This document shows positions 41,660 through 43,818 of a stretch of DNA of 64,000 nucleotides, piece after piece. The stretch comes from a virus. Lineage: Duplodnaviria; Caudoviricetes. The stretch covers positions 1 through 64,000 of the IMG/VR virus record IMGVR_UViG_3300028833_000086, one strand, 5' to 3'. Each line of letters opens with the position of its first letter. Position 1 is the first letter of the stretch. Below the pieces are notes generated by a model that saw only the letters and a list, made by a program, of their open reading frames with translations, did not search any database and had not been told where the DNA came from. A program made the translations under genes and the position numbers.

Positions 41660-41684
41660 ATTTCACCATTTTATCCTTTTAATC

Positions 41685-41714
41685 AAAAGCCCTCGGCGCT
41701 TAACGACCGAGGGC
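41685..41714 (-). terminator. Terminator-like hairpin closing the ncRNA cluster
   Basis: GCCCTCGG...CCGAGGGC followed by TTTTGATT. Confidence 0.7.
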
Positions 41715-41715
41715 A

Positions 41716-41770
41716 AACATTTGTAGCGCGACTATTTTTATCTTTAGCGGTCGCGACGCTTATGACAGTC
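41716..41770 (-). ncRNA. H-type pseudoknot unit C followed by CAAAUGUU
   Basis: Stem 1 AGCG/CGCU, stem 2 CGCGAC/GUCGCG, A-rich loop 3. Confidence 0.65.
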
Positions 41771-41798
41771 TATAGGCTCCATGCCTCCATGGAGTCAG

Positions 41799-41855
41799 TG
41801 CAGCAGCAAGGAGTTGCACCTTGCCTCGGGGAATTCTCCCCAAACTGTAGCTGCA
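41799..41855 (-). ncRNA. tRNA-like element lacking a D-arm
   Basis: Acceptor-like UGCAGC/GCUGCA, one central hairpin, T-arm CAAGG-UGCAACU-CCUUG. Confidence 0.55.
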
Positions 41856-42005
41856 TAACAAAGGTTCCCGTAGGAACCTTTTCAGGTCACGGGCCCGCAA
41901 GCTTCCGTAACACGATCATTACTACCGCCTGTAATTACAGTCGATATGTATCATAGTAACTTAGCAGGAATATACGTCTCCCATAACGTTTAGATTTTAA
42001 TCAAA

Positions 42006-42035
42006 ATTTCAATATGCCTCACGTTACTATGAATA
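42006..42035 (-). ncRNA. Solitary CRISPR-repeat-like unit (type I-B-like)
   Basis: 30-mer TATTCATAGTAACGTGAGGCATATTGAAAT ending in an ATTGAAAT handle; no array. Confidence 0.5.
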
Positions 42036-42039
42036 AAGC

Positions 42040-42100
42040 AGCCGAGGGGGGATCGAACCTCCATTAAGATACGCACTAATTGCGTCCACAGCCATCGACC
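42040..42100 (-). ncRNA. tRNA-like element lacking a D-arm
   Basis: GGUCGA/UCGGCU acceptor-like stem, ACGCA/UGCGU hairpin, GGAGG-UUCGAUC-CCCCC T-arm. Confidence 0.55.
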
Positions 42101-42145
42101 CCAAAAAACAAAAGACGCCATAATTGATCAAATTTCATAACAGCT

Positions 42146-42235
42146 ATCGTTATCGTTCGTCGCTTATATAGGTGGACGTTCACCCATCTTTATCGTCCCT
42201 CGCTTCTTTTATGGTGGAGGTTCACCAATCTTTAT
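42146..42235 (-). ncRNA. Two tandem ToxI-like pseudoknot repeats (42 and 40 nt)
   Basis: AUAAAGAU-(U/G)GGUG-AAC(C/G)UC-CACC...GA(G/C)G; compensatory change in stem 2. Confidence 0.75.
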
Positions 42236-42250
42236 ATGACGTCTTCGAAG

Positions 42251-42539
42251 ACTCCTTCTACACATGACAGATGAGTTGAAAATTTTGCGCCCCCTCCACC
42301 TATAGGACATAAGCGAGAGGAGACAAAACATTTGAACCCCGAGCTTTTATATACCGCATCTCGGGTAGCGGGAAACATTTGGTTGCGTACCTTTTATTTA
42401 TGTCGATATACGCTCCCGACACAACATTTGCAAAAAACACTATGTATAAAACATAACGTCTTTAGTAACTCCTTCTACACATGGTAGTCGAGCTATCTGC
42501 GCCCCCTCCACCGCTAGGACAGCAGTGGAAGGAACGCAA
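42251..42539 (-). repeat. Duplicated hairpin scaffold (copies 42251-42325 and 42468-42539)
   Basis: Identical blocks actccttctacacatg (42251, 42468) and tgcgccccctccacc (42286, 42498). Confidence 0.85.
42327..42430 (-). ncRNA. Two tandem CptI-like pseudoknot units (49 and 47 nt) delimited by CAAAUGUU
   Basis: Three CAAATGTT at 47/49-nt spacing; each interval folds as an H-type pseudoknot with an A-rich loop 3. Confidence 0.78.
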
Positions 42540-42600
42540 TCACGGAAGGAAGAATCTATGAATATAATATAGAGGACAGAATTAGCCCTCTACGAGTGGA

Positions 42601-43818
42601 TTAATTAAGTTTATAAGTGTATTCGCACGTCTTTCCTTTACCACTTTCAAACACAAACATTGAAGCTCCAGCGTTTGAAGTTTTGTTAAGTGACATTCCA
42701 AATGGATCTACACCAATTATACTTCTAATATGGATTGCTTCGGCATTAATACCAACCTCAGTATTTTCGGCATGGTGTTTATGACCAGCTATTATATAAT
42801 CAAAGGACATATTATACGCTCGACCAATATCGTTTATAGCATCGGCAAGATTTTTAACCTCACCATGTATTCCAAGGACTGAGCTTCCCGCGAACACCCC
42901 GTAGTTCATTCCTGTCTCATTTTCCGTAACAATAATATTCTTATTATTTTTGAGACGCTCTTTTAAAAATGAACTAATTACCTTGCTCATATTTTCGTCG
43001 GGAAAAGCATTTTTGGGTGCCCCACACAGTCTAAGTTGATTATGATTGCTATCAACAACCATCTGGAAGTCGATAACTACATGTTCGCTCAAGGCGGTCA
43101 GCCAGTTTGCCATATACTCTGCATATAATAGAGAAGACTCAATCACTCCATATCTTAATTGCATTAACTGAGAATTAAGTCTTAACATCCCTTGGATACC
43201 ATCCCCAAGCTCCCACACAGATAATTTACGTATCTTTTCTCTTTTTATTGTTGTAACAACATCGGAGAGAAGAGCATTCATTCTCTGTTCAAATATCTCG
43301 GGGCTATAAGCGTTTACTATATTGCCAAATAAATCCTTGATCTCAAATTCTATACCATAATGAGCATCGGCTAAACACAGGAGATACTCCTTGTCGCTTT
43401 CGCCCACCGTCACAACCTTAGGAATCTTGATAGGCGGAAGAGTCTTAATTGCTTCTTTAATATGTTCAACAATCAATTCATCACGCGCTAATTCGCGTAT
43501 GTTTTTATTAAACTCAATTTTTTCACTTTGAATTTTATAACGCTCTTTTCGAAGACTACAAAGTTTATCATCAAATCCAAGGTTTCCTGTTGATCCATAT
43601 TTATTTTCATAATACTTCTTAACAGCATAGCCGCCAAATAAAGTACCATTTGCTTTTCTTAGTACATCGGTTGCGTAGGGAATATTATATATATCTTTTA
43701 ATTCTTCCCAATCTATATCAAGATTACCATCGAGCTTGTCCACGATATCCGACAGACACTGTTCATAATCTTCAACCGACATTCCTATCTTCTCAAGTTC
43801 TAATTCGATATTCTCCAT
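42601..43818 (-). CDS. Calcineurin-like metallophosphoesterase with N-terminal coiled coil
   Basis: ADAHYG, LGD, SNHNQ, IHGE and GHKHH motifs. Confidence 0.88.
   Translation of the reverse strand: MENIELELEKIGMSVEDYEQCLSDIVDKLDGNLDIDWEELKDIYNIPYATDVLRKANGTLFGGYAVKKYYENKYGSTGNLGFDDKLCSLRKERYKIQSEKIEFNKNIRELARDELIVEHIKEAIKTLPPIKIPKVVTVGESDKEYLLCLADAHYGIEFEIKDLFGNIVNAYSPEIFEQRMNALLSDVVTTIKREKIRKLSVWELGDGIQGMLRLNSQLMQLRYGVIESSLLYAEYMANWLTALSEHVVIDFQMVVDSNHNQLRLCGAPKNAFPDENMSKVISSFLKERLKNNKNIIVTENETGMNYGVFAGSSVLGIHGEVKNLADAINDIGRAYNMSFDYIIAGHKHHAENTEVGINAEAIHIRSIIGVDPFGMSLNKTSNAGASMFVFESGKGKTCEYTYKLN

Follow-up and report, generated by a model that had tools for sequence, protein, structure and literature searches.

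To our knowledge, phage RNAs that mimic a type III antitoxin are essentially known from one laboratory system, that of the Pectobacterium phage PhiTE. This phage evades ToxIN by means of expanded or hijacked ToxI repeats, an RNA mimicry that suppresses ToxN, and its wild type has 1.5 repeats, out of phase, which are inactive before their expansion in laboratory escape mutants (PMC3475682). The toxIN operon itself is defined by the order of promoter, repeat array, terminator, and toxN (PMC8860590). A recent survey states that the repeats of toxI and cptI are mostly near-identical, and reports non-identical tandem units with stem-2 covariation for tenpI (PMC12283969).

The closest precedent of the array described here, found in an uncultivated phage known from metagenomic sequence, is the pseudo-ToxI of PhiTE, given that both are phage-encoded, toxin-less, ToxI-like repeats located in an intergenic gap. 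The two differ in that the metagenomic phage has two complete in-phase units, at most 94% identical to bacterial arrays, and in that its array is embedded in the terminator loop of a small RNA, beside a second antitoxin family (CptI). [quoted passage not shown]

The source record is a virus of 122,737 bp (a 123-kb phage, 97% complete), and the window, by which we mean the whole stretch of 64,000 nucleotides that was analysed, is its first 64 kb. The array lies in a non-coding gap of about 940–961 nt, without any credible ORF, which is bounded on one side by an exonuclease-like gene (42601–43818) and on the other by a 359-aa gene, after which comes the large terminase gene, and the genes surrounding it are on the minus strand. 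According to ARAGORN, the window is free of tRNA genes. Pieces resembling tRNAs, with a GGTTCGA(A/T)(T/C)CC motif like that of the TPsiC arm, can be seen at window positions 42101–42038 (minus strand), 3' of the array, and the same motif is present in related phages (L032:2860-2935 and L034:2740-2810), where it follows a long GCGUUCC...GGGGGCGC hairpin.

The preliminary description of this DNA had reported a unit of 42 nt, a second of 40 nt, and a partial third, and all of them, the last with 8 nt, are present on the minus strand, from 42235 to 42146, as established both by Tandem Repeats Finder (TRF; 42146–42235, period 42, 2.2 copies, 82% matches, score 117) and by reading the sequence. The first unit (type A, 42 nt, 42194–42235) reads AUAAAGAU-UGGUG-AA-CCUC-CACCA-UAAAAGAAGC-GAGG-GACG, and is made up of a 5' tail AUAAAGAU (42235–42228), a stem 1 in which UGGUG (42227–42223) pairs with CACCA (42216–42212), a stem 2 in which CCUC (42220–42217) pairs with GAGG (42201–42198), an A-rich loop UAAAAGAAGC (42211–42202), and the 3' tail GACG (42197–42194). 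The second unit (type B, 40 nt, 42154–42193), AUAAAGAU-GGGUG-AA-CGUC-CACCU-AUAUAAGC-GACG-AACG, has the same 5' tail AUAAAGAU (42193–42186), a stem 1 of GGGUG (42185–42181) with CACCU (42174–42170), a stem 2 of CGUC (42178–42175) with GACG (42161–42158), the loop AUAUAAGC (42169–42162), and the 3' tail AACG (42157–42154). The partial third junction, AUAACGAU (42146–42153), completes the second copy of a CGAUAA motif (42155–42150), the first copy of which is found at 42195–42190, all on the minus strand. The junction 5' of the first unit is CAUAUAA instead of CGAUAA, which makes the 5' processing of this unit uncertain.

Each unit is predicted to fold into an H-type pseudoknot, in which the 5 bp of stem 1 enclose a loop of 6 nt and four of the six loop bases pair, as stem 2, with a tetramer located 8–10 nt downstream. 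The unconstrained minimum-energy fold, in which the array pairs with the upstream hairpin, was set aside, as pseudoknots are not representable in it. The swap of CCUC/GAGG for CGUC/GACG in stem 2, which the preliminary description had also pointed out, is present between the two units, and recurs in most of the homologous arrays.

These features resemble those of ToxI in several respects, that is, tandem repeats of around 40 nt (within a range of about 34–45 nt, in at least about two units, with 2.2 copies in the phage and 2–3 in its homologues), a predicted H-type pseudoknot in each unit, whose two stems are short and nested and whose third loop is the longer one, a junction that is conserved, rich in A, and presumably single-stranded, and homologous arrays flanked by a promoter and a terminator, with a PF13958 toxin downstream. 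On the other hand, the phage units are longer than those of ToxI (40–42 nt versus 34–36 nt), adjacent units are non-identical, being of two alternating types with a compensatory change in stem 2, and the phage copy has neither a terminator of the native type nor a toxin. The array also matches no Rfam model, with no relevant hit at either the gathering or the permissive thresholds, a result which was likewise obtained for the genuine toxN-linked arrays, so that Rfam does not discriminate between members and non-members here. As for TenpI, the RNA of the TenpIN systems, which can be set beside the present array by description only, the non-identical units and the stem-2 covariation are shared, and the toxin family is different.

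The expectation that arrays of similar sequence would be linked to toxN was borne out at five distinct metagenomic loci (L041/L070/L071, L072, L073/L074, L075, and L079/L080), the units of which are 79–86% identical to the phage array, and all five present the layout of a promoter followed by 2–3 units, a terminator, and toxN. In the first of them (L041), obtained by a scan of metagenomes, a promoter-like sequence precedes two units, a GGGAAGC...GCUUCCC terminator, and an ORF of 210 aa that matches the Pfam family ToxN_toxin (PF13958) at 112.5 bits (E 2.9e-32, cut-off 25), AbiQ in PADLOC, the solved Bacillus thuringiensis ToxN structure 4ATO (E 2.5e-12), and the further solved structures 7D8O and 2XD0 of ToxN and 4GLK of AbiQ. 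The contigs of proteins 62–65% identical to this toxin were then fetched, and the same family of units was found upstream of the four further ToxN genes (L072, L073/L074, L075, and L079/L080). The identification of the array as a ToxI of the ToxN/AbiQ type, as originally put forward, is thus supported by the toxN-linked homologues and by the AbiQ and PF13958 matches of their toxin, and the action as a decoy that was proposed with it is considered likely.

The units become progressively different as the toxins become more distant. When the toxins are 57–60% identical to that of L041 (L076 and L077), the units keep the same frame with different stems (UCUC/GAGA and CAGC/GCUG), a relative at 50% (L048) has GGCG/CGCC as its stem 1, and toxin relatives at 41–44% have longer and quite different units. 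As the difference between units grows while the identity of ToxN falls (41–60%), the RNA and the toxin diverge together, and the phage units accordingly fit a single narrow clade of toxins, the closest one. The identity of individual arrays to that of the phage is 94% for the chromosomal, toxin-less array of L040 (see below), 86% for the E. oxidoreducens array (L039) and L079, and 79–83% for L041, L072, L073, and L075. A search of viral contigs for close relatives of these ToxN proteins recovered none. The toxIN locus of L070 (L070:1637-5373), with its cognate array, lies among genes for a DDE transposase, an XRE-type regulator, HicAB, and conjugation-type proteins, and the transposase, hicAB, and conjugation-type neighbours suggest a mobile-element setting for it.

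The pseudoknot was also assessed through the covariation of 22 aligned homologous units, counted on the two-stem model, although the covarying cells are not independent events, given that the units are linked by duplication and descent. With this kinship in mind, the stem cells are paired in 93.4% of cases, versus 82% in shuffled alignments and no more than 59% after sliding the partners, compensatory changes on both sides are found in five of the nine pairs, and the covariation score of 0.317, against 0.148, was reached by none of 500 shuffles. For the middle pair of stem 2, for example, 14 units have C-G and seven have G-C. For the modelled pseudoknot, the evidence clearly points one way despite the kinship of the units, and the recurrence of the same unit family, with both stems, in independent bacterial and metagenomic loci indicates at the sequence level that the array is beyond chance. 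The junction bases C, A, U, A, and A are invariant in all 22 units, and the G is nearly so; by analogy with ToxIN, the CGAUAA junction is probably the site of recognition and cleavage by the toxin.

The two types of unit, type A (UGGUG..CCUC..CACCA..GAGG) and type B (GGGUG..CGUC..CACCU..GACG), follow each other in the order A-then-B in the phage and in L040, L084, L039, L072, L073, L075, and L079, and two A units are found only in L041. This alternation is unusual, given that toxI repeats are mostly near-identical in the recent survey (PMC12283969), and a plausible reason for it is that the GAGG of one unit is unable to mispair with the CGUC of the next. As far as can be judged from their sequences, the arrays constitute a newly defined ToxI subfamily with alternating, compensating units, to which that of the phage belongs.

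The phage itself has no recognisable toxin, given that the PF13958 profile has no match at E<=1 anywhere in the record and a tblastn search with the L041 toxin produced only noise. The terminator of the GGGAAGC type is also absent from the phage copy, and the array is followed by a U-run and more non-coding, RNA-like sequence, with no ORF. The layout of promoter, terminator, and toxN, which is found in L041/L070, L072, L073, L075, and L079, is thus missing from the phage, and because there is no toxN anywhere and the native terminator is lacking, the phage copy is an orphan member of the RNA family, rather than a ToxIN locus. The toxN-linked homologues and the covariation, together with a 97% complete genome that is free of toxN, therefore lead to the reading of a genuine ToxI carried toxin-less. 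A phage genome without toxN, with two complete units and with junction motifs at their flanks, is also what a phage mimic of ToxI would look like, and two complete in-phase units is the same number as in native bacterial arrays.

A long-range stem encloses the array, with its 5' arm GAAGACGUCAUA at 42235–42246 and its 3' arm UAUGGCGUCUUU at 42122–42111, followed by the U-run UGUUUUUU (42110–42103), all on the minus strand, and, when the units are held unpaired in ViennaRNA, 42246–42235 pairs with 42122–42111. In the phage phi3T, a conserved hairpin of 27 nt is followed at once by a plain terminator made of these two arms, and in the window copy 2 of the conserved hairpin (42251–42277, minus strand) lies immediately upstream of the array. 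Because the arms pair when the units are unpaired, and form a simple terminator in phi3T, the array is considered to sit in the loop of the terminator (42103–42122, minus strand) of the second copy of a small RNA, the hairpin of the first copy being located at about 42494–42468 on the same strand.

The 27-nt hairpin, AGCUC(A/G)(U/C)CU(G/A)CCAUGUGUAGAAGGAGU, is invariant, and the small RNA is present in 55 IMG/VR contigs, in the Bacillus phage phi3T and its relatives, and in a Vibrio phage (the loci collected are L001:2500-2560, L002:2500-2535, and L086-L139). In many of the contigs, the hairpin comes directly after a sigma-70-like promoter and before a variable intrinsic terminator, often beside tRNA genes. 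It has no match in Rfam, and no paper with its sequence was found, so this is apparently a widespread phage small RNA that is undescribed so far. When the entire non-coding gap was compared with GenBank phages by blastn, the small-RNA motif was matched and the repeats were not.

A second pair of repeats, which is CptI-like (42327–42430, minus strand), lies at about 100 nt from the array. Window positions 42326–42426 are 83% identical over 102 nt to a stretch of the Eubacterium oxidoreducens genome (L039:6075-6174) found directly upstream of a homologue of CptN (PDB 4RMO_A, E 6e-25), and this position upstream of cptN independently supports the CptI-like reading of the phage pair. The CptI of the CptIN system of E. 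rectale (PDB 4RMO; PMC4627078) shares with the ToxI array the H-type pseudoknot, the A-rich long loop, the single-stranded tails, and the two-unit organisation. They differ in the sequence of the unit and of the junction motif, which is CGAUAAAG in the ToxI array and CAAAUGUU in the CptI-like pair, and in the cognate toxins of the phage unit family, which at the five loci are ToxN (PF13958) and not CptN. In E. oxidoreducens, the ToxI and CptI arrays are likewise distinct and end in terminators of their own, the CptI pair being located between the ToxI array and the toxin gene of cptIN. The array had been described as distinct from the CptI-like pair, and it is, since the units differ and the pair instead matches the cptN-linked stretch. 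Two further degenerate ToxI-like units, GGUGAGGUUCUACCUUAGUGAAC and GCGUGGUCCUGCUUAGUGGAC, can be recognised by eye between the array terminator and the CptI pair in E. oxidoreducens (L039:5995-6075), and on this reading up to three antitoxin-like arrays would be stacked before a single cptN.

As regards phages, the array is rare, given that only this lineage was matched among the 2.9 million contigs of IMG/VR. Of the 26 loci returned by a first viral pattern scan, 25 were fortuitous and lay in GC-rich coding DNA, and one was real, from a relative 98% identical to the window with an identical array (L028), and a second, looser scan again recovered this relative only. Within the large terminase gene of the relative there is also an insertion of 325 nt (L028:1272-1596, minus strand, opposite window position ~40379), which the window phage does not have, and the similarity of which to group I introns is weak and stays below threshold (17.3 bits, E 0.055).

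The restriction to one phage lineage, together with the absence of the cassette from phages in which the neighbouring gene is 78–83% identical, and the failure to find a sigma-70-like promoter for the array on the minus strand, would be expected if this were passenger DNA, left behind by a recent recombination with a bacterial toxIN locus or an orphan one, and with no role in the phage. This is nevertheless unlikely, as there are two complete units, in phase and with all of their stems intact, the native terminator and the toxin are cleanly gone without leaving any remnant of toxN, the array falls exactly within the loop of the small-RNA terminator, and it adjoins a second, different type III antitoxin. 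The comparison of the 961-nt gap with that of the 98% relative also speaks against a passenger, given that there are 13 differences, all of them in 41680–42051, the downstream 40% of the gap, and none in 42052–42620, where the two copies of the small RNA are located along with the CptI pair and the ToxI array.

Toxin-less arrays are also found in bacteria, and these bear on the setting in which a ToxI without its toxin might be used. A scan with the exact pattern over 185,579 genomes, one per prokaryote species, produced four matches, which is about what would be expected by chance, and one of these was real; E. oxidoreducens DSM 3217 has an array of the same units (38 nt, 2.8 copies) followed by a terminator (L039:5847-5954), with no PF13958 gene in its genome, and a pattern search of 401 genomes of its family matched this genome alone. 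The possibility that this locus belongs to a related prophage was rejected, as its ORFs have no match in the phage and the similarity is confined to the two RNA arrays. Two other toxin-less arrays, with promoter-like sequences and terminators, were found in related uncultured Lachnospiraceae (L040:864-949, minus strand, and L084:2838-2925), at a common site with the order dprA, array, a 74-aa ORF, and an ATPase of the type II secretion type, and toxN is absent from both of these sites. The region is 89% identical overall between the two, and the middle of dprA is just 60–76% identical. A recent loss of toxN was also rejected as the origin of the orphan loci, as no remnants of the gene were detected in L040, L039, or the phage.

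Given that the arrays nearest to that of the phage (L040/L084, 94%) and the array of E. oxidoreducens have no toxin, orphan arrays may serve a use other than that of countering a resident ToxN. The phage array, in turn, might work in the lysogen or in the cell at large, for example as an anti-addiction module for the loss or tolerance of plasmids or elements that bear ToxN, and the fixed chromosomal site in the two Lachnospiraceae, the array of E. oxidoreducens, and the toxIN locus found among transposase, HicAB, and conjugation-type genes are all compatible with such a role. We regard this as quite improbable for the phage array, and it would in any case rely on the same sequestration of ToxN, so that it differs from the main reading in setting and not in kind. 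The chromosomal orphan arrays could likewise be anti-addiction modules.

Although prophage-borne toxIN loci and viral tenpN loci have been reported (PMC12283969), it is very improbable that the array is the antitoxin of a complete phage-borne pair with a toxin too divergent to be recognised, given the outcome of the profile and tblastn searches of the whole phage, the lack of an ORF after the array, and the ease with which the toxins cognate to this unit family are recognised as ToxN.

Returning to a genuine ToxI carried without its toxin, since there is no toxin gene in the phage, the RNA most likely disarms a bacterial ToxN defence during infection. The best-supported role would be that of keeping ToxN inactive and thus defeating abortive infection, by analogy with what was shown for PhiTE (PMC3475682), in which case the array would be transcribed, would bind ToxN, and would protect the phage from it, and the natural host would carry a ToxN of this clade. 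In the proposed mechanism, the array would be transcribed from the minus strand of the non-coding cassette, within the loop of the small-RNA terminator, and each unit would then fold into its H-type pseudoknot, in which stem 1 has 5 bp, stem 2 has 4 bp, and the third loop is rich in A. The ToxN endoribonuclease of the host would cleave this precursor at its CGAUAA(A)G junction, which is conserved and presumably single-stranded, and would remain bound to the products of about 40 nt as an inactive complex. As the infection stops the transcription of the host, the labile host ToxI would decay, and the phage ToxI would hold ToxN in its place, so that abortive infection would fail.

Some of the features of this locus are new, namely the alternating units, the placement in the loop of a small-RNA terminator, and the pairing with a CptI decoy. 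It is tentatively suggested that the array is cargo in the small-RNA terminator loop and forms, together with the CptI pair, a modular, multi-target decoy cassette against type III TA systems, and that the arrays of this clade are obligate non-identical pairs in the order A-then-B. If this were true, the difference between types A and B in stem 2 would insulate neighbouring pseudoknots from mispairing, or dictate another stoichiometry of toxin and RNA.

Finally, ToxI of this kind would restrain ToxN, a suicide enzyme, in some gut or rumen bacteria, and toxin-less ToxI arrays persist in bacterial chromosomes. An uncultivated phage already bears a full-length ToxI array, which can be traced to bacterial toxN-linked arrays and lies beside a second antitoxin family, and this suggests that the capture of antitoxin RNAs is a real form of counter-defence in nature, for which the phage array and a ToxN of the cognate clade constitute a directly testable pair of toxin and antidote.
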